From the NCBI GenBank assembly GCA_000004985.1, contig GG738916.1: a stretch of 64,000 nucleotides of DNA; one strand, 5' to 3'. This DNA is from Naegleria gruberi (taxonomy: Eukaryota). The first letter of the stretch is position 1, and every line of letters starts with the position of its first letter. Made by a program: the position numbers and the translations under genes. Of this stretch, positions 1 through 64,000 are shown piece by piece. Under the pieces are notes generated by a model, which was given only the letters and a program-made list of their open reading frames with translations, was not told where the DNA came from and searched no databases.

Positions 1-1729
1 GGTGGTAAATCAGCTACTAATCTTGTTAAGGATTTTGTAAAGATTAAATTGTCTACTCTGGATGTGGATAAGGCTACTTGCCAATCGGAGGTATTAATTT
101 CTGAACTTGATGGCTTTGCTCCAAGATTTGGTCATTCATTGGTGTTGGAAAAATCAGAAAATGGTAAAAGACTTTACTCCATTGGTGGTTGTAATAATAA
201 GGTTGACCATTTGGATTGTATCTATATTGATTTAAATAACATCAAGAATGGTTGGGATGTAACTTATACTCATTCTCTTTCCCACACTTTCAAAAGCAAA
301 GATGTTGGACCCGTATTTCATGCAAATGTTCCATTCCAAGTGATCAATGAAGATGATAGTATTGCTATGAATTACTTTGTATTTGGTGGTACTTATCAAA
401 AGACTGAGGATTCTAAAATTCAAGAGACCAGCCAACAAACAGATAAGATTGAAAAGAAGCAGAAAAAGAAACAAGCTGGTGAGCCATCATTTAATATTGA
501 AGTATTTGATAATGTGATGAATGATGACATTTTCAGATTGGTTCTCTCATTCATGACAATTTCAGATTTGTGTAAATTAGAGTTGGTCTCTAAGAAATTG
601 AGAATTTGCAAGCTCACCTCAGAGGATCAATACTGGAAGGATTATTACTATCAAAGGATTAATTTATATTTGGAAGCAAGCAAAACTTATAACTATAATT
701 ACAACAAGATAACTAGAGCTTATGAAACTAATTATCAATATTCTGAGATCTATACTTCATACCTCAAATTTACTAGCAACTATAAGAGACGTTTGATTGA
801 AGTTATTGGAGAATGCATGTCAAAAGCTGACAGAGATCACCACAAGAGAACCAGTTATATTGAAGGTTTGTCACAATGTGGAAGTGACATCTACGTTCCT
901 AAAGAAGAAATTCTCAAGTACAAGTTGAAAAATGCTTCAACAAGTGCTTTTAAAATTGTTCAAGTTGGTGAGTTGTCATTTATTTGAGAAAATACTTGAA
1001 TACTAATTAATCAATTGAAATTTCAAATAATAAGGTGATGGAGCTGTGGGTAAAACATGTCTTTGGATATCTCTAACCACCAACGCCTTTCCACATGAAT
1101 ATGTGCCAACCGTTTTTGATAATTACAGTCAAAATTATGTCTGTGATGGAACAACTTTCAGTCTTGGATTGTGGGATACTGCAGGACCAGAAGGTAAGTA
1201 ATTTTAAAATTGTATTTTGGATTGACCATTCAAAAGATTATGATAGGTAAGTTTAAGAAGAGTTATTAATTTTATAAATTATGCAACTAATGAAATATTA
1301 ACGGATTTAAACATATACAGATTACGTCCACTTTCCTATCCCCAAACTGATTTATTCTTTTTGAGTTTCAGTTGTAGTTCAGAATCATCTATGGATAATG
1401 TCGTTTCAAAATGGATTCCTGAAATAAGACATCATTGCCCAACTACTGCAGTTGCACTTGTTTGTACCAAGATTGATTTTAGAGATGATCCAGTCCTTAG
1501 TAGAGAATTACTTGTCAAAAAACATAAGAAGATTCATAGTTTTGAACAGGGAGAATTACTTGCCAAAAAGATGGGATGTCTCACTTACTTGGAAACAAGT
1601 GCTCTTACAGGTGCTGGAATTAAGGATCTGAACGAAGTGATGGTCAGATCCATCTCTATGTGGAATGATCCTTCATTCAAGCAAATTGTGAAAAAGAATC
1701 GTGAAAAGAAGAATTGTAACATGCAATAA
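1..1729 (+). CDS. Multi-domain protein, 5'-truncated at the window edge. The N-terminal part has a Kelch-like repeat and an F-box-like motif; the ORF is open from nt 1 to 987. It is spliced in frame to a C-terminal Rho/Rac-family GTPase domain. Proposed exons: 1..967, 1035..1193, 1237..1246 (10-nt micro-exon), 1321..1729.
   Basis: The ORF is open from position 1 in frame. It contains GG-doublet/W Kelch-like motifs and an F-box-like stretch, [38 protein letters not shown]. It ends ...AFKIVQVG directly at a GTGAGT donor. The 67-nt intron (968..1034) ends AG, and the next exon reads (G)[32 protein letters not shown]...[10 protein letters not shown], a canonical Rho P-loop and switch I. The 10-nt micro-exon ATTATGATAG joins to exon 4 and restores [15 protein letters not shown]. 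The Rho insert region and a C-terminal CNMQ CaaX box are present. The GTPase domain itself has confidence about 0.9; the fusion to the upstream ORF is inferred from phase-perfect splicing. Confidence 0.6.
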
Positions 1730-12167: not shown

Positions 12168-12238
12168 TGCGTCGACCGGGAATTGAACCCGGGTCACGGC
12201 GATGGCAACGCCGTATTCTACCACTAAACCATCGACGC
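12168..12238 (-). tRNA. tRNA-Gly (anticodon GCC)
   Basis: The minus-strand sequence is GCGTCGATGGTTTAGTGGTAGAATACGGCGTTGCCATCGCCGTGACCCGGGTTCAATTCCCGGTCGACGCA. The acceptor stem is 7 bp. The A box TGGTTTAGTGG and B box GGTTCAATTCC are present. The anticodon loop is TTGCCAT. The T-stem CCGGG/CCCGG is intact. A T-run terminator follows. Confidence 0.85.
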
Positions 12239-17944: not shown

Positions 17945-18528
17945 AGAAAATCATTAGTTATTCATTAACAACATTTTATGATAGATATCAAGAAGCGTCG
18001 ATGGTTTAGTGGTAGAATACGGCGTTGCCATCGCCGTGAATAGGGTTCAATTCCCGGTCGACGCATAAATTATTTTCCATTTCAACATTCTTTCATTTTC
18101 TCTTTTTCAACTTTATACCACTAAAACTAGACATTTATTACTATCTCTACTCCAAAAATCACATCTTTAAAATCAATATTCATCGAGAAAGAAACCTCGG
18201 TTTTTACCCCATTTTTTCTTTCATTTTATTAAAAGATAAATTTGGTGAACTTTGTAAAACTCAAAAAAAATGTCTGAAATCGATAAACAACCAAACCTTC
18301 AATCAAAAACTTCTACCCATCCTCTTTTTGCATTCCTTCGTGATTATTCCATCATAGGTGGTGCTCATCTCTGCTCTGTAACTTTCACTGCTCCTCTACA
18401 TAGAGCAATAGATGTTATTACAAATTTCGAGAAAGATCACAATATTCTGGAATAATCAATTGTATTACTGAGGTTGTAAAGAACGAAGGTATTTCGTTTC
18501 TGTGGAGAGGAAACGTTACATATTGTTT
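17945..18528. repeat. Right arm of the inverted duplication, about 585 bp. It contains the second tRNA-Gly and the functional-looking 5' end of the carrier gene.
   Basis: See the left-arm entry. This arm carries the extra 76-nt block. Confidence 0.8.
17995..18065 (+). tRNA. tRNA-Gly (GCC), second copy with an altered T-stem
   Basis: Identical to the left copy except in the variable region and 5' T-stem: GTGAATAGGG in place of GTGACCCGGG. This introduces an A.G mismatch and a U.G pair in the T-stem. The A and B boxes are intact. A T-run lies downstream. Confidence 0.7.
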
Positions 18529-45210: not shown

Positions 45211-46049
45211 TTTTTATTGGTAGAAGAATCTAATAATTTACCACAGCAGTTTATTGAACTTGGTATTGCTCCTGTGTAATCCAATATGCTTCTATCATAC
45301 TCATAAATGCAAAAATTGAGCAATGTTAGTAAATTTATTTACTAACATCCCGAAGAATATTCTATTGTTATTAGAGCGAGGAAACACACTAGGTACTTCC
45401 TCACGTATCAAAAATTTTGAAGGAGGGCAATAGCCAATGGCAATTGACCATATACAGGACAGCTTTTCAGAGTGCAAGGAAAAGCGTCGACTGCATAACT
45501 TTCCAACCTTCTTGATCATTGGAAAGTCCTTCAAGGTAAGTATGAAGATTTAAGAGAGGCAGTAAGACCATCCTTAAATTGTCCCTCAAAACCTCAACTG
45601 TTGGCTATATAAAATTATGGTCCATTATTTTTAAAAATATTTCTTATTACAATTTTGAAGCTATGGATTGGAAAAATAATCGCAGATCTATGTTTGTGTT
45701 AAGCCCGATAAATCAACAATATATTCATGTTGGTATTCTGTATATTCAAAGATTCAAGTAATTCTAACATTCTTTTAAAAAATGTGTTTGTAAACAATTT
45801 CCTATGTCAATATGTGTCGAACGTAATTGAAAAAATTGAAGTTCCAACCTACGGTGCAGTTTTTAGTGTGGGAATTTGCAGATAATGTTGATGTTGCCTC
45901 TTGTGATGACATTTTTTAATTAATGGCAGGAAAGAACTGTAGACTAATCCTCAAATCAATTATTCATTGCTCAGTAGTATAATAGATTGTAACAGTTAAC
46001 CTTAAATTGTCCTTGAAAACCTAAACAAATGCAAATAGACAAACATAAA

Positions 46050-53567: not shown

Positions 53568-55320
53568 ATGCTTTCTTTTTTACGCAAGGCTTTGACACAC
53601 AACAATAACAATAATAATAACAATAAGAATAACAATACTGATAACAATAATAATAATAATAGTGATAACAATCATTTTATTCCTAATGATATTTTAATAA
53701 TAATATTTCAATTTCTTAATCAACAAGATTATATAAAAATATCATTTGTTTGTAGATATTGGAGATTTGTTGTTCAACAACCATTCCGAAAGGAATTTAC
53801 AAATTTTATTTTAAACTCTTCATATTCAATAGTTTATTGTACATTTATTATTAATGCATTTGAGTTTTTTAAATTCTTTTCTTCCATAACATTATAACAC
53901 TGTACCTGAATCAACATTTAAAACTCTGCTTTCTTCAATGAAATTACAAAGTTTATTTATTGATTCTTGTGTTGTTAAAAATAATATACCATTCAATTCT
54001 GTAAAACAATCTAATATAACTGAATTAGGATTAAATTGTAAAATGAAAAAGAAAGATTTACGTGCTTTATTTATTGTAATTCCAAATTTGAAACATTTAA
54101 GTTTAGGAATGGTAGTAACCGAATGTTTAATTAACACAGAATCATTTCTGAGTACACATTGTCATAAATTAGAAACACTCCATTTACAATTATTACCTGA
54201 AAATCAAAAAAAAATTGTAAAATTATTACATGGAATATTTAATCCATCAACAACAATATCCAATCTCATTGATATTAGAATATTTGTAACAGATAATAAT
54301 CCAACAAGTAATAGAAAATTAAATAATTTTACATTTAATTTTAATTCATTTCCAAATTTAAAATATTTATTTCTTGATATTACCTATATTTATACATTAG
54401 AATCAATTAGTAATGTATTAAATTCAAATAATATTTCAAAATTACAAGAATTTGGATTTGGAACTATTAGAAAAGCTATTGAAAAATTACAATTTAATTC
54501 GAGTGAAAATTTACAAAATTTAAAAAAATTATTTTTAAATAGAACAGAAATGATGACAAATATTGATAATCTTCCTTCATTAGAATTATTATATATAGAT
54601 GAATATGCAAAAAAACATTATTCCGCTACAAAATATTCAAAACCATGGAATTTAGCATCTAATGTGAAAATGCCATCTCTAAAATATTTACATTTAAATC
54701 TTTTTAATGAAACTCATTTACCTGATCGATTAAATGTGGAACCATTTAAAAATATTAAATATTTTTATTTTGAATCTGAATATAATATTGATTTATCAGA
54801 ATTGAGTAAATTAAATTTAGAAATATTAATTCTTAAAATTTCTGAAGAATATAATAAGAATATACTTCATCACATTTCTAAAATATCAACATTGAGAGAT
54901 TTAACATTTAGTAATCCTATTAGTGAAATTGATTTGAAATTACTTTGTAAATTACCAAATTTAGAATATCTGAATATTAGATTGGAATTTTATAGTGAAA
55001 CATCTTTTACTTTTAATTCACTAACTACACTCTCAATTCATTCAAAAAATTTGAAAGGATTAAATTTCTTTCAAATATCAAATTTACCAAAATTTAAAAC
55101 TTTACTAATTCGTAATCCTTATGATAATAACTATACATGGTGGTTGCAACCATTATTTCCAAATTTACAAATAATTAAAGCAAGTACTGACAGTTTTGGA
55201 ATATTTTTAACATCTCAATATAATGATGATATGAATTTTGGTGAGTATGAAGTTTCACAAAGAGCAGCAAATCATTTCCAAAATGAAAACGTATGGCTCT
55301 TTCCAAAAAAATTTATTTAA
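53568..55320 (+). pseudogene. F-box/LRR gene, copy A of a tandem pair. It is disrupted by a small deletion that creates a stop after codon 109; the ORF resumes at 53938.
   Basis: About 95% identical to copy B (59373..61145). Near 53880, copy A reads ttataacactg where copy B reads ttatttttccataatactg. This gives a TAA in frame. The poly-N tract at the N-terminus differs in length between the copies. Confidence 0.55.
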
Positions 55321-56031
55321 TATTAAAGCTCTGTATCAGAGGTTTCTCCTTGGTCACAGTTGATTTTTTAGAAGGATCTCCTTCAGCCAATATCTTTGGT
55401 TTCAAATGGTGAATTCAAGCAAGCCAATGCTGAGAAGGCCAAAGTTGACAATGATTATGTTTGTAAACATTTCAAATCCTATTTTTCAAAAAATTCAAAT
55501 AAAAAGTTGGTACATCATCATAGTTGTTATTTATCATCATTATAAAAGCCTCTTGGATGGTTCAAGAGATGCTGAATTCAAATGTTATAGAGATTGAACA
55601 GAATATTGTTGTACATTATATTTATTGTACCCAAGAAGGAACTTTTGGAATAAAGGACAGTTCCTTCAAGTTTACCAATTCAAATGCCTTTCATTTGGAA
55701 TAAGCCAAGCTCCCAGGAACTCACCAAGATTATGAAAAAACTGGTAACCAAGTGGAGACAACAAGGTATTATTTTGTTCCTAAAATTCAGAAAGAAAAGG
55801 GTGTCTTTACTCCCTGACTCAAACTGAAGCAATTTAGACTTCAAACGTAATATTTCCATCATTTGCAAGCCTAAGAACTGAAAAAGGATAAGGAATTGCT
55901 TTAGTGTTGAGAAATGAAGGAGAATTTTGTGAAGAATTAAGACAGGCCAAAATTAAATCCTTACAAGTCTGATTTCTAACTTGGAAAATTTATTTATTTA
56001 TTGATTGGCCCATGGTTTTACCTCATTTCCA

Positions 56032-58504
56032 TTATTTTCTGTTTACTCTCAACCAATAATCGATAATAACTTTCAAGAAATTATTGCATGGTATATTTTC
56101 TTGACAAGATAATTGGATTTTTTGTAAATAATCAAGAGTTAAATTATTTGAGCAAAATATCTTGAAATACTCAACTAGCTCTCTACAATCATTATTATTT
56201 TGTGAAACTGAAGCTAAATTTAGTAATATAATAAATTCAGTATCATTAATGGAATATAATTTTTCAACAATCAAGATACAGACATGTTTAACAATCCATG
56301 TAATATCCAATTGTTGTGCAATGATTAAAATACCAACCAAATCATTCAATTTAAGGTAATTGAACTCATATCCATAACATAATTTACATATGATTTGTAA
56401 TATTGTATTAATTTTAGCTGAATTATTGAACAAATCAATAATCCAATGATCTGATACCATCATTTCAATGAATTCATACAAGTCAACCACATTATTTTCA
56501 TTATTTTTAAATAGAATATTTAAAACTGAACTATGAACGGATAGAATTGATTTATGTAATTGCAATAATTCATTTTTATCCTTATTAATAATTACATGAA
56601 TATCACTATTACTTTCATCATTATATAATAATTTTAATGATTCAGTTACATTTTTGGCAATATTTTCAAGATTATCAATTTTATAATTAATTTGTTTAAA
56701 TGGTTGTTTAACATTATTAATTTTATCTTGAATAATTTCGAATAATGGATCTGATTTCAATAAAGTTGCATTTTCTTTAATAAATGCAAGACACTTATTT
56801 GCCAACAATAGCAAAATACTATTTTTAGCTTGTTTTAAAATATTTAAAGAAAGATAATTATTAACTATTCGTAAAATCCTCATAATGTTATCTACATTCA
56901 TTCTATTTGAAATGTCATTAAATAACAATAATTTAATTTCATGCTTGATATCATTAATATCATTTAATATAAATAGACAAGTTACTAAATTTAATTCTAA
57001 TTCTCCAAATGAAATGAAATTAATAAATTTATCATAATTACTAAATAAATCATCTATATTTAAACAATTTAAATCAATAATTGCGTTTTTAATTAAATAA
57101 TATAAAACTTTTTGGTCATTCTCATTTAAATGTTCAATTATATCATTTTTAATTAAATTATAAAAATCATTTGAAATATTTTTTAATAAATTTAAATCTA
57201 AATAAAAATTAGAATTAATTTCATAATTGAACTTAAAATTATCAGTTACCATAATATCATTAATCTTGAGACTATTCTCATTATCTGTTTCATGAATAAA
57301 AATAGTAAAATTTTTACCACAACAAATTTGAATTTCATCACCTTCCTTAATAGTAAATGGTAATTCAATTAATTTTAGTTCATTGGCTGATTTATTAGCA
57401 TATCCTAATTCGCCAAATTCATTAGATCCAAATGAATAGAACTTTTGGTCTACTGTTTGCAAAACACTGTGGAAGGTACCACTTTCCATATTAATAATAT
57501 TATCCATATTTGCTTGTTTAGAATTATAGTCAATATATTTGCATTCATTATTATATAACGATAAAATTTGATATTCATTCAATATTAATTGATCATAATT
57601 TTTCTCAAATTTAAACTCATTATAATTATTATGTAATTTAATTACTTTTTTAGGATTGTAATAATCTGCCAAGCCATAATCAATTAAAGTATAATCTAGA
57701 ATTTACAATAGAAGAATCATTAAAAATAATGAAACTAGTTCTTCCATTACATTTAATATCCTTAATATCTTCAATATTCTTATTAACTAATTTGGTAACA
57801 TTCATAAAATTATTTAAGGTAAAATAATCTTCAACATGTAATTTACCATTTACAATACTTTCAATTACAAATGGTTGGAATGATTGTGAATATTCATTCA
57901 TTCCACAAACATACAATTCATTTTCAAATGTTGTGAAAAATGTCAAATGAAATGTTACAAATATTTTGTTTACTTTTAACTTTTCTAAATTTGTATTTTG
58001 TAATAAATTAACGGCTACATCATTTGATTTTTTAGCAATGATAGCCAATTGTCCATGTTCATTATTACCAATACCAAATATGGAATTTAATTTAGATAAA
58101 AATACAACATGTTCTTTACCAATCGCAAAATCAATAATTTTGTCACTAGTATTTAAATTATTAAATTTAATCAATGTAGGAATATTAGAAATATTATTAA
58201 TAAATGAACAATTTCCCATTTTGTAAACATATCCCTTACGCGTAAGAAATATGCACAATTGATCTTGACTTTTAAATTTAATAATCTTATCATTAATTAA
58301 ATAATTTTGTAAATAATCAATTTTATCAAAACATGTATCATTTAATTTTGTAACAGTAATAATATCACTTTGTTTCTTCCAGAATCCATCTCCGCATCCG
58401 TAAACAAATTGTGATTTAGAAGAATTAATACCGAAAGCAGTGTTATTAGGTTCTGTTTCGTCGTCCACTACTTGATCAACATGGTGAATGGTGAATTGAT
58501 TCAT
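56032..58504 (-). CDS. RCC1-like repeat plus BTB/POZ domain protein. It is split into two ORFs (58504..57680 and 57672..56032) by a stop or frameshift. Coding is extremely AT-rich.
   Basis: RCC1-type blades: YGCGDGFW, FGIGNNEHGQLA, FGSNEFGELGY. A C-terminal BTB-like block: DLYEFIEMMVSDHWIIDLFNNSAKINTILQIICKLCYGYEF...LIIAQQLDI. The two ORFs are 7 nt apart and in different frames. Confidence 0.55.
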
Positions 58505-59372
58505 TTTTTTTTATAGAGTGGTCTCTCGGTTGTTATTGATACAAGAGACATTAATAAACTTGTACACCTTTTATTTTGTTATAGATTGTTACAACAAATA
58601 TTGTGCTTACTCAGCATTGCATTCATTGGTTTTGTCTAGCTAGATCGGCGGAAATGAAATCTCATTCGTGTGATTGATGTGAGAGATGTTACGCGCCAAA
58701 ATTTCTACACCAAAAAATAAGCAAAGCCACTTTTTCGAACTCTTATTTGAAAATCCATTAAGGAAATTAAACTCTCAGTACTTTCAAGAAATACCTCTAC
58801 TCATCATCATTGGTATTTAATTCAATCAACATAAATCAGCATCAATTTGGAATATTTCAATTAGAGTAGCTGGGATACATCTCACCAAAAGTAATAAGAG
58901 CAATATTGTGTGATGGTGTTTCTTCTTGGAATGAAGAAAGTTGCCAACCTCGGAAATATCAAACATTATCATTAAGCTGTAATTCAACATCACATTATAT
59001 TTATTTTTATATTAATAGTAATACTTGTTCATTAGGAATTTCTTCAACTAATTAATATATTTTCATCATGAATTCCAAAAACATTGTATGATTATTAGGG
59101 ATGTCTAATCTAATATCACCATCAAGAGAGTTGGATTATTTGTATTCATCGAGTTGTGGAATTTTACTTCATCATACCTTATCATCAGCAAGCTCACTTC
59201 AGATCATTAAGGTAAATATCTTAATGGTCATCATCAACCAGTTGCAGATTAAAACTGTGATTTAATGTCTCAATTAAGTTGATTGCTATGTTTGGAAAAT
59301 ACACGAACGATTCAATATTTCAATTTTTAAAAAGGAAGGAAGATTCTTCATGACTTTCAAAAAATTAAAAAA

Positions 59373-61145
59373 ATGCTTTCTTTTTTGCACAAGGCTTTGA
59401 CACACAACAATAACAAGAATAACAATAATAATACTAATAATACTAATAACAATACTGATAACAATAATAATAGTGATAACAATAATTTTATTCCCAATGA
59501 TATTTTAATAATAATATTTCAATTTCTCAATCAACAAGATTATATAAAAATATCATTTGTTTGTAGATATTGGAGATTTGTTGTTCAACAACCATTCCGA
59601 AAGGAATTTACAAATTATATTTTAAACTCTTCATATTCAATAGTTTATTGTACATTTATTATTAATGCATTTGAGTTTTTTAAATTCTTTTCTTCCATAA
59701 CATTATTTTTCCATAATACTGTACCTGAATCAACATTTAAAGCTCTACTTTCTTCAATGAAATTACAAAGTTTATTTATTGATTCTTGTGTTGCTAAAAA
59801 TAATATACCATTCAATTCTATAAAACAATCTAATATAACTGAATTAGGATTAAATTGTAAAATGAAAAAGAAAGATTTACGTGCTTTATTTATTGCACTT
59901 CCAAATTTGAAACATTTAAGTTTAGGAACGGTAGTAACAGAATGTTTAATTAGCACGGAATTATTTCTGAGTACACATTGTCATAAATTAGAAACACTCC
60001 ATTTACAATTATTACCTGAAAATCAAAAAAAAATTGTAAAATTATTAAATGGAATATTTAATCCATCAACAACAACAATATCCAATCTCATTGATATTAG
60101 AATATTTGTAAAAGAATATTATACAACAAGTAATAGAAAATTACATAATTTTACATTTAATTTTAATTCATTTCCAAATTTAAAATATTTATTTCTTGAT
60201 ATTACCTATATTTATACATTAGAATCAATTAGCAATGTATTAAATTCAAATAATATTTCAAAATTACAAGAATTTGGATTTGGAACTATTAGAAAAGCTA
60301 TTGAAAAATTACAATTTAATTCGAGTGAAAATTTACAAAATTTAAAAAAATTATTTTTAAATAGAACAGAAATGATGACAAATATTGATAATCTTCCTTC
60401 ATTAGAATTATTATATATAGATGAATATGCAAAAAAACATTATTCCGCTACAAAATATTCAAAACCATGGAATTTAGCATCTAATGTGAAAATGCCATCT
60501 CTAAAATATTTACATTTAAATCTTTTTAATGAAACTCATTTACCTGATCGATTAAATGTGGAATCATTTAAAAATATTAAATATTTTTATTTTGAATCAG
60601 AATATAATATTGATTTATCAGAATTGAGTAAATTAAATTTAGAAATATTAATTCTTAACATTTCTTTAAAATATAATAAGAATATATTTCATCACATTTC
60701 TAAAATATCAACATTGAGAGATTTAACATTTAGTAATCCTATTAGTGAAATTGATTTGAAATTACTTTGTAAATTACCAAATTTAGAATATCTTTATATT
60801 ACATTGGAATTTTATAGTGAAACATTTTTTACTTTTAATTCACTAACTACACTTTCAATTCATTCAGATAATTTGAAAGAATTAAATTTCTTTCAAATAT
60901 CAAATTTACCAAAATTGAAAACTTTACTAATTCGTAATCCTTTTGATAATAACCATACATGGTGGTTGCAACAATTGTTTCCAAATTTACAAATAATTAA
61001 TGCAAGTACTAACAGTATAGGAATATTTTCAACATCATCTCAATATAATGATGGTATGAATTTTGGTGAGTATGAAGTTTCACAAAGAGCAGCAAATTAT
61101 TTACAAAATGAATATGTATGGCTCTTTCCAAAAAAATTTATTTAA
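59373..61145 (+). CDS. F-box/LRR protein, intact copy B of the tandem pair, 590 aa
   Basis: F-box: IPNDILIIIFQFLNQQDYIKISFVCRYWRFVVQQPF. L-rich repeats follow (LKHLSLG, LETLHLQ, LKYLFLD, LEYLYITLEF). The N-terminus is poly-N. Confidence 0.7.
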   Translation: MLSFLHKALTHNNNKNNNNNTNNTNNNTDNNNNSDNNNFIPNDILIIIFQFLNQQDYIKISFVCRYWRFVVQQPFRKEFTNYILNSSYSIVYCTFIINAFEFFKFFSSITLFFHNTVPESTFKALLSSMKLQSLFIDSCVAKNNIPFNSIKQSNITELGLNCKMKKKDLRALFIALPNLKHLSLGTVVTECLISTELFLSTHCHKLETLHLQLLPENQKKIVKLLNGIFNPSTTTISNLIDIRIFVKEYYTTSNRKLHNFTFNFNSFPNLKYLFLDITYIYTLESISNVLNSNNISKLQEFGFGTIRKAIEKLQFNSSENLQNLKKLFLNRTEMMTNIDNLPSLELLYIDEYAKKHYSATKYSKPWNLASNVKMPSLKYLHLNLFNETHLPDRLNVESFKNIKYFYFESEYNIDLSELSKLNLEILILNISLKYNKNIFHHISKISTLRDLTFSNPISEIDLKLLCKLPNLEYLYITLEFYSETFFTFNSLTTLSIHSDNLKELNFFQISNLPKLKTLLIRNPFDNNHTWWLQQLFPNLQIINASTNSIGIFSTSSQYNDGMNFGEYEVSQRAANYLQNEYVWLFPKKFI

Positions 61146-61282
61146 CATTAAAGCTCTGTATCAGAAGTTTCTCCTTGGTCAAATCTGAATAGTGAATTCA
61201 AGTAAGGCCAAAGTTGACAATGTTCAATGAATAATGTTTGTAAACATTTCAAATCCTATTTTCAAAAAATTCAAATAAAAAA

Positions 61283-62829
61283 ATGTCAAGATTAACTTTT
61301 CCGTTACTTCTTGCTACATTGATAATCGCTTTCGTTTTGGTGTCATCAGCATCATTATCGGATCGGGTTAATGCCTTGACTCCACTCATAAAAACATCAA
61401 AATTATTCTCCATCAAACAACAGAATAATAACAAGCAATTATTTATTACTGCTACAATTTATCCTAATTTTAAAATTGTTCATGGAGTGAAGGATTTAAA
61501 ATTTGGTTTGGCTACTATTGAATATAATGATCAGTTACATGCACAAGGATTTGATACATTGGTTTTAGAGACGAGACAATCTACAAGTTTGGTGGAAGAC
61601 TTTGCTATTGCTCAGGGGGCTGGATATTTGGAAGGCTATTTGACAATGCAGAGAATTTACAATCATTTTGTGAATATTAATAGTGTATCGTGGTGGAATG
61701 CTAAGGAGAATAGAACTTTGGGAATGTCAAGTAATATTCGTCAATTTTTCAAAGATCAAAANACATGGATTTTACAACAAGTGAGCCAACACATGAATGG
61801 AACAACAGAAGAGGATTTATATTGGCNNNNNNNNNNNNNNNNNNNNNNNNNNNNNNNNNNNNNNNNNNNNNNNNNNACTGATATTATTTCAGTCATACCG
61901 TTGGGTGGGTATTTAGTGCCTTGACAAGAATGATGAAGACATACACTCTCAATTTTGCAAATCCACTCACAAAGTCTCGCACAGTGACATTTTCGAGTTA
62001 TCCTGGATCATTAGGCAGTAATGATGACTATTATCAAACTGATGGTGGTCTTGTTGTTATCGAGACAACCATTGGCATTTTGAATAATACTCTCTACGAT
62101 AATACTCATCCTCAATCATTGTTGAGTTGGTTTAGAGTTGTCTTGGCCAATAGAATGGCTACAAGTGGCAGAGAATGGTTTGAAGTTTTTAGTATTAATA
62201 ATGGAGGAACCTATAATAATGAGTGGATGATTCTCGATGTGAAAAAGTTTATTCCTGGTCAAGCTCAATTGACAAAGGATTTATTCTGGGTAATTGAACA
62301 AATACCTGGAACAGTGGTGGGATCAGATCAAACAAATCTTCTCTCCACTCGCGGATACTTTGCATCTTATAATGTTCCTTTCTATCCTTCCATTTATGAA
62401 AAAACTGGATATGCAGAATATGTGAAGAAATTTCCAGAGACTTATCATTATATGAGTTATGATAAGTGTGCCAGATCTGAAATATTCAGAAGAGATCAAC
62501 ATTTAGTCAAAGATCTGCCATCCATGCAACGAATTATGCAATATGATAATTATCATGATGAATTTTCATTCGGAAATCCTGACTGGGTAATCTCAGCAAG
62601 AGACGATTTAGCTCCAAATGTTCCAAATGGACAAAAGAGTTGTGGAGGTGGATATGACTGTAAAATATCATCTATTTCTAAATGGAATTTTGTATTTTTC
62701 AGAAGTGGACCAGCTCACCAATTTACACCTGTTTTCAAGTTTGAGAATCAATGTGGACCTCAATACTCACATGTTGGATTGCCTTTGGAGTGGAACTTCC
62801 CTTGGATTCAATTGGATAGCAGAGTTTAA
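61283..62829 (+). CDS. Phospholipase B-like (PLBD/LAMA family) protein, interrupted by a 50-N assembly gap
   Basis: Signal-like N-terminus: FPLLLATLIIAFVLVSSAS. Conserved PLB-like blocks: AQGAGYLEGYLT, NNEWMILD, SYNVPFYPSIYEKTGY. The two supplied ORFs, 61283..61924 and 61921..62829, are one gene read across the gap. Confidence 0.75.
61827..61876. other. Assembly gap: a run of 50 N, plus an isolated N at 61762
   Basis: A literal N run in the sequence. Confidence 0.99.
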
Positions 62830-63382: not shown

Positions 63383-64000
63383 ATGGCGCAAAATATCTTT
63401 GAAGTTTTGCCCAACGATTTGATCGGAGAAGTTCTCTCTCATATCAGCCATGTTGAATTACTTGTTACCTTCTCTCAAGTTTGTAAATATTGGCAGAGAA
63501 TTTGTTATGAATTAATTTGGAATTATTATGAAGAATCATTTACACATATTACGAATAATCCGAAACAAGTATTTGTTGATTTGGATCAATTTTTACATTC
63601 AAAAGAAGGAAAGAAATTTATTAGATATTTACTACGTAAACAGGTTTATGAATTTGCTTGTAAATTGGCTCAGAGTTCAACACTTTCCGATAAATCATGT
63701 AATGTGAAAGAAAAGTGGGTCGATGTGGAATTGAGTATATTGAAGGGATGTTTTAAAAGATTCTCTGATTTGGCAGAGCAACCAACGATTCCAATTCTAC
63801 AACCAAAAGTTTACAAAGATCCACCACCAACATCAGGATTGTTCAGTAGTGCTTTATCATTTATTGGATCAATGTTTTCAAAGAATTCATCAAGTAGTTC
63901 CAAAGCTACACCAATTAGTGTTGAGCCAAAACCAGAATATGATTTTCTAACAAAGGTACTTTTGGATGGCGACTATTCAAGTGGAAAGACTTCATTGCTT
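63383..64000 (+). CDS. F-box protein, 3'-truncated at the window edge. The last visible residues start a P-loop GTPase-like motif.
   Basis: ATG at 63383. F-box: LPNDLIGEVLSHISHVELLVTFSQVCKYWQRICYELIW. It is open in frame to the window end, 206 codons with no stop. The final residues KVLLDGDYSSGKTSLL fit the GxxxxGK[ST] G1 motif of small GTPases. Confidence 0.55.
   Translation, partial: MAQNIFEVLPNDLIGEVLSHISHVELLVTFSQVCKYWQRICYELIWNYYEESFTHITNNPKQVFVDLDQFLHSKEGKKFIRYLLRKQVYEFACKLAQSSTLSDKSCNVKEKWVDVELSILKGCFKRFSDLAEQPTIPILQPKVYKDPPPTSGLFSSALSFIGSMFSKNSSSSSKATPISVEPKPEYDFLTKVLLDGDYSSGKTSLL

Follow-up and report, generated by a model that had tools for sequence, protein, structure and literature searches.

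A Kelch, F-box and Rac-like GTPase fusion in Naegleria gruberi with a conserved proline at the catalytic glutamine position

The first 1729 nucleotides of a 64,000-nucleotide stretch of Naegleria gruberi NEG-M DNA (assembly GCA_000004985.1, contig GG738916.1; the whole stretch is called the window below) make up the 3′ two thirds of a single gene with four exons, with 514 of about 719 codons inside the window. The gene is predicted to encode a Kelch propeller, an F-box-like motif, a helical linker and a Rac-like GTPase domain with a C-terminal CaaX box, and it has proline in place of the catalytic glutamine (Gln61) of Ras and Rac. This proline is conserved between genera and is not private to the gene in the window. 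We propose that the product is probably a membrane-anchored substrate receptor of a Skp1/cullin-1/F-box (SCF) ubiquitin ligase with a hydrolysis-impaired Rac module, a function read from its sequence and from that of its homologues.

The four exons lie on the + strand at 1..967, 1035..1193, 1237..1246 and 1321..1729 and give a product of 514 residues in the window, which is AT-rich (31 to 38 per cent G+C over most of its length). The translation is identical at 194 of 194 overlapping residues to the hand-corrected model XP_002670347.1* (‘Rac’) of Herman et al. (2021), as far as that model could be seen in their Table S8. The first 205 residues of the model lie upstream of the window, which brings the full protein to about 719 amino acids. 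Frame 1 is without a stop from base 1 until a TGA at 985..987, which would be read if the first intron were retained. Exon 1 ends in ...AFKIVQV and the first base of a glycine codon at 967, with the donor GTGAGT immediately 3′ (968..973). The acceptor AG is at 1033..1034, and exon 2 starts at 1035, where the split codon G/GT gives Gly and is followed by DGAVGKT. Intron 1 (968..1034) is thus a phase 1 intron of 67 nucleotides with the signals GTGAGT, TACTAAT and AG. An initial annotation of this DNA, made from the letters alone, had placed the junction at 967/1035 and had read an upstream open reading frame (ORF) running from the window edge to AFKIVQVG at the GTGAGT. The frame 1 reading bears out the ORF, and the phase, yielding GDGAVGKT, bears out the junction.

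That gene model was incomplete in one respect, having overlooked a microexon. Exon 2 ends at 1193 (GAAG/GTAAGT), and splicing 1193 straight to 1321 shifts the frame. Only the 10-nucleotide microexon ATTATGATAG at 1237..1246, bordered by AG and GTAAGT, restores both the frame and an invariant Rho motif, of which it encodes (D)YD(R). By chance, the 127-nucleotide interval would be expected to hold about 7e-6 such sites. The introns predicted on either side are intron 2 at 1194..1236 (43 nucleotides, GTAAGT to AG) and intron 3 at 1247..1320 (74 nucleotides, with GTAAGT, AACTAAT and AG). Judged by homology, the correct product appears to depend on the microexon. The N. fowleri and N. lovaniensis homologues (loci L001 and L002) have no microexon; their introns follow GKTS and DYDRLR, so intron positions vary within the family.

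We predict with high confidence that the Kelch, F-box and Rac parts form one protein, as the initial annotation had also concluded. The first β-strand of the GTPase, FKIVQV, is already encoded by the end of exon 1 (949..967, together with the first base of the P-loop Gly codon); it aligns with residues 4..10 of human Rac1, and the GTPase domain therefore starts in the upstream exon. No conserved Met precedes this strand in the family alignment. In the N. fowleri and N. lovaniensis loci, an intron-free Kelch/F-box ORF runs through the P-loop GDGATGKTS, and the same contiguous ORF is found in an environmental contig (P0018) and in an N. gruberi paralogue (P0123). The match to the published model agrees with these loci.

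The GTPase domain is recognized by Pfam Ras (E = 8e-39) and is 53 per cent identical to human Rac1 over 192 positions, with motifs G1 to G5 aligned. Exon 2 (1035..1193) holds the P-loop GDGAVGKT, switch I (YVPTVFD) and the start of switch II (WDTAGPE). By alignment with Rac1, the last exon (1321..1729) completes switch II and carries TKID (for NKxD), the Rho insert, ETSAL, a polybasic stretch, the CaaX box and the stop codon. The Rho insert stands opposite Rac1 residues 120..138 without deletion. The motif WDTAGPE at 1172..1192 takes the place of WDTAGQE, and the CCA codon at 1187..1189 puts proline at the catalytic Gln61 position. Since Gln61 is replaced, the domain is an atypical member of the Rho/Rac family. 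Thr35, Asp57 and Gly60 are intact, as are G1 to G5. The protein ends in CNMQ (1715..1726, then TAA at 1727..1729), a predicted prenylation signal preceded by the polybasic KKNREKK. The initial annotation had named the Rho insert, WDTAGPE and the CNMQ end, and all three stand.

An exhaustive search with a profile of the F-box and linker returned ninety cluster representatives, forty-one of them below 1e-10. A word-indexed homology search with the F-box and linker alone as query gave no matches. The named members of the family belong to N. gruberi, N. lovaniensis and Willaertia magna, N. fowleri adds the protein P0004, and the remainder are from environmental assemblies. The commonest architecture is F-box, linker, Rho and CxxQ, and a subset has an added Kelch propeller at the N-terminus. 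Nearly all complete members end in CxxQ. Of the members in which a Kelch propeller is combined with a complete and canonical GTPase domain, all eight have proline at position 61. The other G motifs of the eight are intact; only P0019 (WDTQCPD) has further changes in switch II. A divergent Kelch-bearing N. gruberi paralogue (P0169) has Gly at this position, and the shorter, faster-evolving F-box/Rho members have Q, P, L, S, H, G, E or D. The Pro-bearing sequences fall at the base and in two clades of a neighbour-joining GTPase-domain tree, which we did not use as evidence, as it lacks support values and is easily distorted by long-branch effects.

Part of this was already on record. Herman et al. 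(2021; BMC Biol 19:142; PMC8296547, Supplementary Material 4 and Table S8) catalogued Naegleria F-box/GTPase fusions in a list of ‘novel domain architectures’. The architecture that the initial annotation called unusual is indeed so in general; within Naegleria, it belongs to a large family catalogued before. The Table S8 entry for XP_002670347.1* lists ‘BTB, F-box’ as extra domains (PMC8296547). No BTB match at E ≤ 1 was found in the 514 residues. While the architecture and the gene date from the 2021 catalogue, the recurrent proline appears to be unreported: the small-GTPase supplements of Herman et al. are silent on the catalytic glutamine, on Q61 and on hydrolysis, and a full-text literature search for ‘WDTAGPE’ found no paper. 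What we add is the microexon, the conservation of Pro61 beside otherwise canonical motifs, and the recurrence of this proline in F-box-fused GTPase families, including those at both ends of the window.

The domains upstream of the GTPase are assigned from the family and from the full-length published model. Within the window, exon 1 opens with the final blades of an N-terminal Kelch β-propeller (1..405, open in frame 1 and within the region of identity to XP_002670347.1*). The window holds about the last two blades, which score 16.6 bits. Kelch families match ten of eleven family members, down to 3e-54. The full published N-terminal 341 amino acids match the LZTR1 Kelch domain at 1.1e-19 and a designed Kelch protein at 1.9e-19, and a homologue matches LZTR1 at 2.3e-27. 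In a model of the N. lovaniensis homologue P0005 the propeller is confident, and Foldseek matches it to LZTR1, FBXO42 and KLHDC2/3/10. We regard the propeller as a putative substrate-binding face; every one of its closest solved relatives serves as a receptor in a cullin-RING ligase.

Between the propeller and the F-box lies a Lys/Gln-rich spacer (406..519) of variable length, poorly conserved in the alignment and with a low predicted local distance difference test (pLDDT) score in the homologue model. The F-box-like motif itself is at 520..636, and the same columns score better in relatives, where eight of eleven match F-box-like and seven of eleven match F-box (best 1.1e-9; 38.3 bits for the F-box of P0102). 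A profile of the F-box and linker across the family has FBXO3, β-TrCP1 and FBXW11 as its top PDB matches (E from 0.004 to 0.3), each aligned on its F-box. The linker (637..948), found by profile search and in the homologue model, carries the motif NYK..LIE....KA-K, specific to the F-box/Rho family, and is modelled as helices and a hairpin with pLDDT mostly 76..95. A second model of P0005, covering the F-box, linker and GTPase with a deeper alignment, reached a pLDDT of 86 and a predicted template modelling score (pTM) of 0.80. Ahead of the Rac fold it shows four short helices and a longer one, then a hairpin and a long helix, and Rac1 (1mh1) is its best Foldseek match (root-mean-square deviation 1.9 Å). 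Profile searches with the family thus recover the Kelch, F-box and Ras/Rho domains of the initial annotation, with the F-box of the window protein itself falling just under the Pfam cut-off.

Taken from N- to C-terminus, the protein would consist of a Kelch propeller of the six-blade type, an F-box, the helical linker, the Rac-like GTPase, a polybasic tail and CNMQ. The F-box would dock it on Skp1 and cullin-1, making it an SCF substrate receptor, and the propeller would bind the substrate. As the last residue of the CaaX box is Gln, farnesylation is predicted, and together with the basic tail this would place the ligase on a membrane. The Rac module should still bind guanine nucleotide, given that G1 to G5, Thr35, Asp57 and Gly60 are intact. 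With proline at 61, no mechanism that depends on Gln61 would be available, whether intrinsic or assisted by a Rho GTPase-activating protein (RhoGAP), and hydrolysis is expected to be slow and insensitive to such proteins. The module would therefore be mostly GTP-bound. Rather than switching rapidly on and off, it would then serve as a fixed docking site for membrane and effectors or would regulate the ligase from within the same molecule, in the way proposed for RhoBTB.

Several observations weigh against this reading. Some concern the F-box: in the window protein it scores 17.7 bits with PF00646 against a cut-off of 20.5 (E = 0.0034) and 12.8 bits with PF12937 against a cut-off of 24.3. The canonical Leu-Pro of the F-box is Met-Asn in the window and Leu-Asn in the family, in which the Asn is invariant. 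In the full-length model of P0005 the F-box has a pLDDT below 50. For the second model, all Foldseek matches are Rho GTPases. A substrate domain N-terminal to the F-box is also an unusual order among F-box proteins. At the other end of the protein, P0004 from N. fowleri ends, as annotated, in ...DSKRSV without a CaaX box, unlike all other complete members; either the box was lost or the 3′ end of the model is wrong. Last, HRAS Q61P and NRAS Q61P both behave nearly as wild type in cells: HRAS Q61P did not transform them (PMC6813200), and NRAS Q61P is a poor driver of melanoma.

The Q61P mutants also bear on how far the consequences of the proline can be taken. Intrinsic GTP hydrolysis by HRAS Q61P is about one-eighth of the wild-type rate (PMC6813200), in line with the hydrolysis defect named in the initial annotation. 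Its further suggestion of a probably constitutively GTP-bound domain sits less easily with a non-transforming mutant, and the GTP-bound, active state is inferred. Because Q61P is non-transforming in HRAS and a poor driver in NRAS, the proline is possibly more than a GTP lock, and it may alter the function of switch II beyond blocking catalysis.

One alternative, which we think unlikely, is that the Rac module is a regulated switch after all. A dedicated partner would provide the catalytic residue in trans, and the GTP or GDP state would gate ligase assembly or substrate binding. There is a precedent in the Asn thumb of RapGAP, which serves Rap, a GTPase that also lacks Gln61. Apart from the one residue, switch I and II are perfectly conserved, which suggests that a nucleotide-dependent conformational change still matters, and it is specifically proline that has been retained and not just any residue. 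GTPase-dependent ubiquitination has been suggested for the F-box/GTPase fusions by Herman et al. (2021; PMC8296547). However, no candidate GTPase-activating protein was identified, and position 61 is L, S, H, G, E or D in short F-box/Rho members and N, K or P in F-box/Rab-like proteins, a pattern that looks like a relaxed need for catalysis.

A more specific role for the propeller seems to us improbable. Here, the Kelch domain would be of the LZTR1 type and would bind a GTPase, recognizing either the Rho domain to which it is fused or one carried by a paralogue, and the whole would be a self-contained nucleotide-sensing unit for degradation or auto-inhibition instead of receiving unrelated substrates. 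LZTR1 is the closest solved relative of the propeller by both sequence and fold, its Kelch domain has been solved with GDP-bound RIT1, MRAS and KRAS, and it likewise joins Kelch, a cullin adaptor and small GTPases. Its binding to GDP-bound RIT1 has been described (PMC9068208). A Rho-Kelch-BTB protein of the amoebozoan Arcella intermedia (P0090, UniRef A0A6B2KXY3), with another domain order and another cullin adaptor, also reads WDTAGPE and also ends in a CxxQ box, CSIQ. On the other hand, the lead of LZTR1 over other Kelch receptors is small for the gene in the window (see the E-value of the designed Kelch protein above) and is small for the Arcella protein too, whose specific affinity to LZTR1 is not clear-cut, and a Kelch domain is absent from many members of the family. 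LZTR1 also differs in having BTB domains (BTB-BACK, cullin-3) and in binding its GTPase in trans, whereas the Naegleria protein has an F-box and a GTPase in cis.

It is less probable still that the F-box-like segment no longer binds Skp1, which would leave an atypical Rac scaffolded by Kelch and without a link to ubiquitination. The subthreshold score in the window, the Leu-Asn or Met-Asn found in place of Leu-Pro throughout the family and the marginal E-values of the PDB matches would all fit a degenerate F-box. Yet eight of eleven homologues pass or approach F-box thresholds in the same columns, the best with 38 bits, and among the ninety relatives this segment is the best conserved part of the N-terminal extension. 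We favour an SCF receptor, although the replacement of Leu-Pro by Leu-Asn makes Skp1 binding plausible rather than established.

We reject, as scarcely credible, the readings in which a Kelch/F-box gene and a Rho gene are separate or the locus is a decaying pseudogene: the three short introns and the microexon are placed by homology only, and the automated model of a close N. gruberi paralogue (P0057, 367 amino acids) does end ahead of the GTPase, but its tail is a frame-2 reading of the region homologous to about 835..930 of the window, which makes the truncation an annotation error with a mis-predicted intron, and against both readings stand the β-strand in exon 1 without a conserved Met before it, the intron-free junction of the homologous loci, the open exons and intact motifs throughout, and the retention of Pro61 and the CaaX box across genera.

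Small GTPases are normally free-standing and ubiquitin ligases act on them in trans, with LZTR1 and RhoBTB as the known links between the two. RhoBTB is the closest system in function, an atypical Rho GTPase and a cullin-RING adaptor in one polypeptide. Its Rho domain regulates the cullin adaptor in cis through an intramolecular interaction that is thought to control ligase assembly, and RhoBTB3 is a prenylated member (PMC4931677). RhoBTB proteins have tandem BTB (Cul3) domains behind an N-terminal GTPase, where the protein in the window has an F-box (Skp1/Cul1), a C-terminal GTPase, a Kelch domain and a nearly canonical Rac apart from Pro61. The lack of BTB, the F-box and the reversed domain order place it outside the RhoBTB family. 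Among receptors that pair an F-box with Kelch, FBXO42 (one of the top structural and sequence matches) and the plant KFB/FKF1 types are also SCF substrate receptors. The F-box protein FBXL2 is anchored, as we predict here, by a prenylated CaaX box. In all of these the F-box is ahead of the substrate domain, and none is known to have a GTPase domain. Natural substitutions at catalytic positions occur in the GTPase-deficient atypical Rho proteins Rnd1-3 and RhoH, whose control lies in expression, localisation and turnover instead of GTP hydrolysis. Those proteins stand alone and have Ser or Asn at 61, often with changes at position 12, whereas the protein in the window has Pro at 61 as its single change of this kind and retains Gly12.

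This amoeboflagellate lineage, to which the pathogen N. fowleri belongs, has the GTPase as an integral part of a putative SCF receptor with many paralogues. If the Pro61 module is a GTP-loaded docking site for membranes or effectors, ubiquitination could be directed to where Rac signals, with no GTPase cycle involved. The recurrent change from Gln to Pro offers a simple testable handle through P-to-Q back-mutation. As P0057 illustrates, automated annotation truncates or splits such genes.

The same substitution is found at the other end of the window. Positions 63383..64000 (+) hold the 5′ part of the F-box/Rab-like gene XP_002670359.1*, whose 206 amino acids in the window are identical to the Table S8 model (PMC8296547). 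Here too, the F-box and P-loop gene given by the initial annotation could be verified, with an F-box at about 63401..63523 (30.5 bits for F-box and 30.8 bits for F-box-like, both above the cut-off) and the P-loop GDYSSGKT at 63968..63991. Its switch II, just beyond the window edge, reads WDQCGPERF, with Pro for the catalytic Gln, and this Pro is kept in the N. gruberi paralogues P0211 and P0212 and in N. fowleri P0213. Another N. gruberi F-box/Rab-like gene has WDYSGPERF, an F-box/Ran-like gene has WDTAGPEKF, and two Ras-like genes, in neither of which an F-box was detected, have D(T/L)AGPEEY. Among the Table S8 sequences visible to us, G-P-E occurs in switch II six times, compared with thirty-two cases of A-G-Q-E. 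Five of these six are in proteins with long N-terminal extensions (F-box/Rab-like, F-box/Ran-like and Ras-like), and the sixth is not shown in that part of the table. Each gene retains the switch II context of its own family (GPEDYDRLRP in Rac, GPERFR in Rab-like, GPEKFG in Ran-like and GPEEYS in Ras-like proteins), which argues for independent changes from Gln to Pro.

Two general rules were considered and rejected. Proline is not shared by every Rho fused to a ubiquitin-ligase (E3) domain, as Rho/BTB/U-box proteins keep Gln, and it is not shared by every F-box GTPase, as F-box/Rab-like proteins also have N, K or Q and short F-box/Rho proteins have many residues. A weaker statement, that the change from Gln to Pro is a convergent hallmark of F-box-fused GTPase domains, is possible, and we put it forward tentatively and with more doubt than belief. 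If true, the proline would do something specific, for example fixing switch II in a way that couples nucleotide binding with SCF assembly or substrate presentation, and a new class of ubiquitin-ligase receptors, loaded with nucleotide, would be defined.

A third F-box protein gene lies at 59373..61145 (+) and encodes 590 amino acids, with an N-terminal F-box of 31 to 32 bits and no Pfam match in the rest. It falls in an AT-rich block at about 54000..62000, where G+C is 21 to 27 per cent compared with about 33 per cent elsewhere, and where several ORFs have hardly any Pfam matches or none. From 2974 to 41423 the window carries ordinary eukaryotic genes, including those for a chromate transporter, a Brr2/SNRNP200-type helicase (a 2295-amino-acid ORF), an ADP-ribosylglycohydrolase, a serpin, a leishmanolysin (M8 peptidase), an RCC1-repeat protein, a HEAT-repeat protein and an aspartate/ornithine carbamoyltransferase. 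Two tRNA genes are at 12168..12238 (−) and 17995..18065 (+), and a gene for the U1 spliceosomal small nuclear RNA is at 45376..45543 (−), with a score of 70.4 bits, just over the gathering score.

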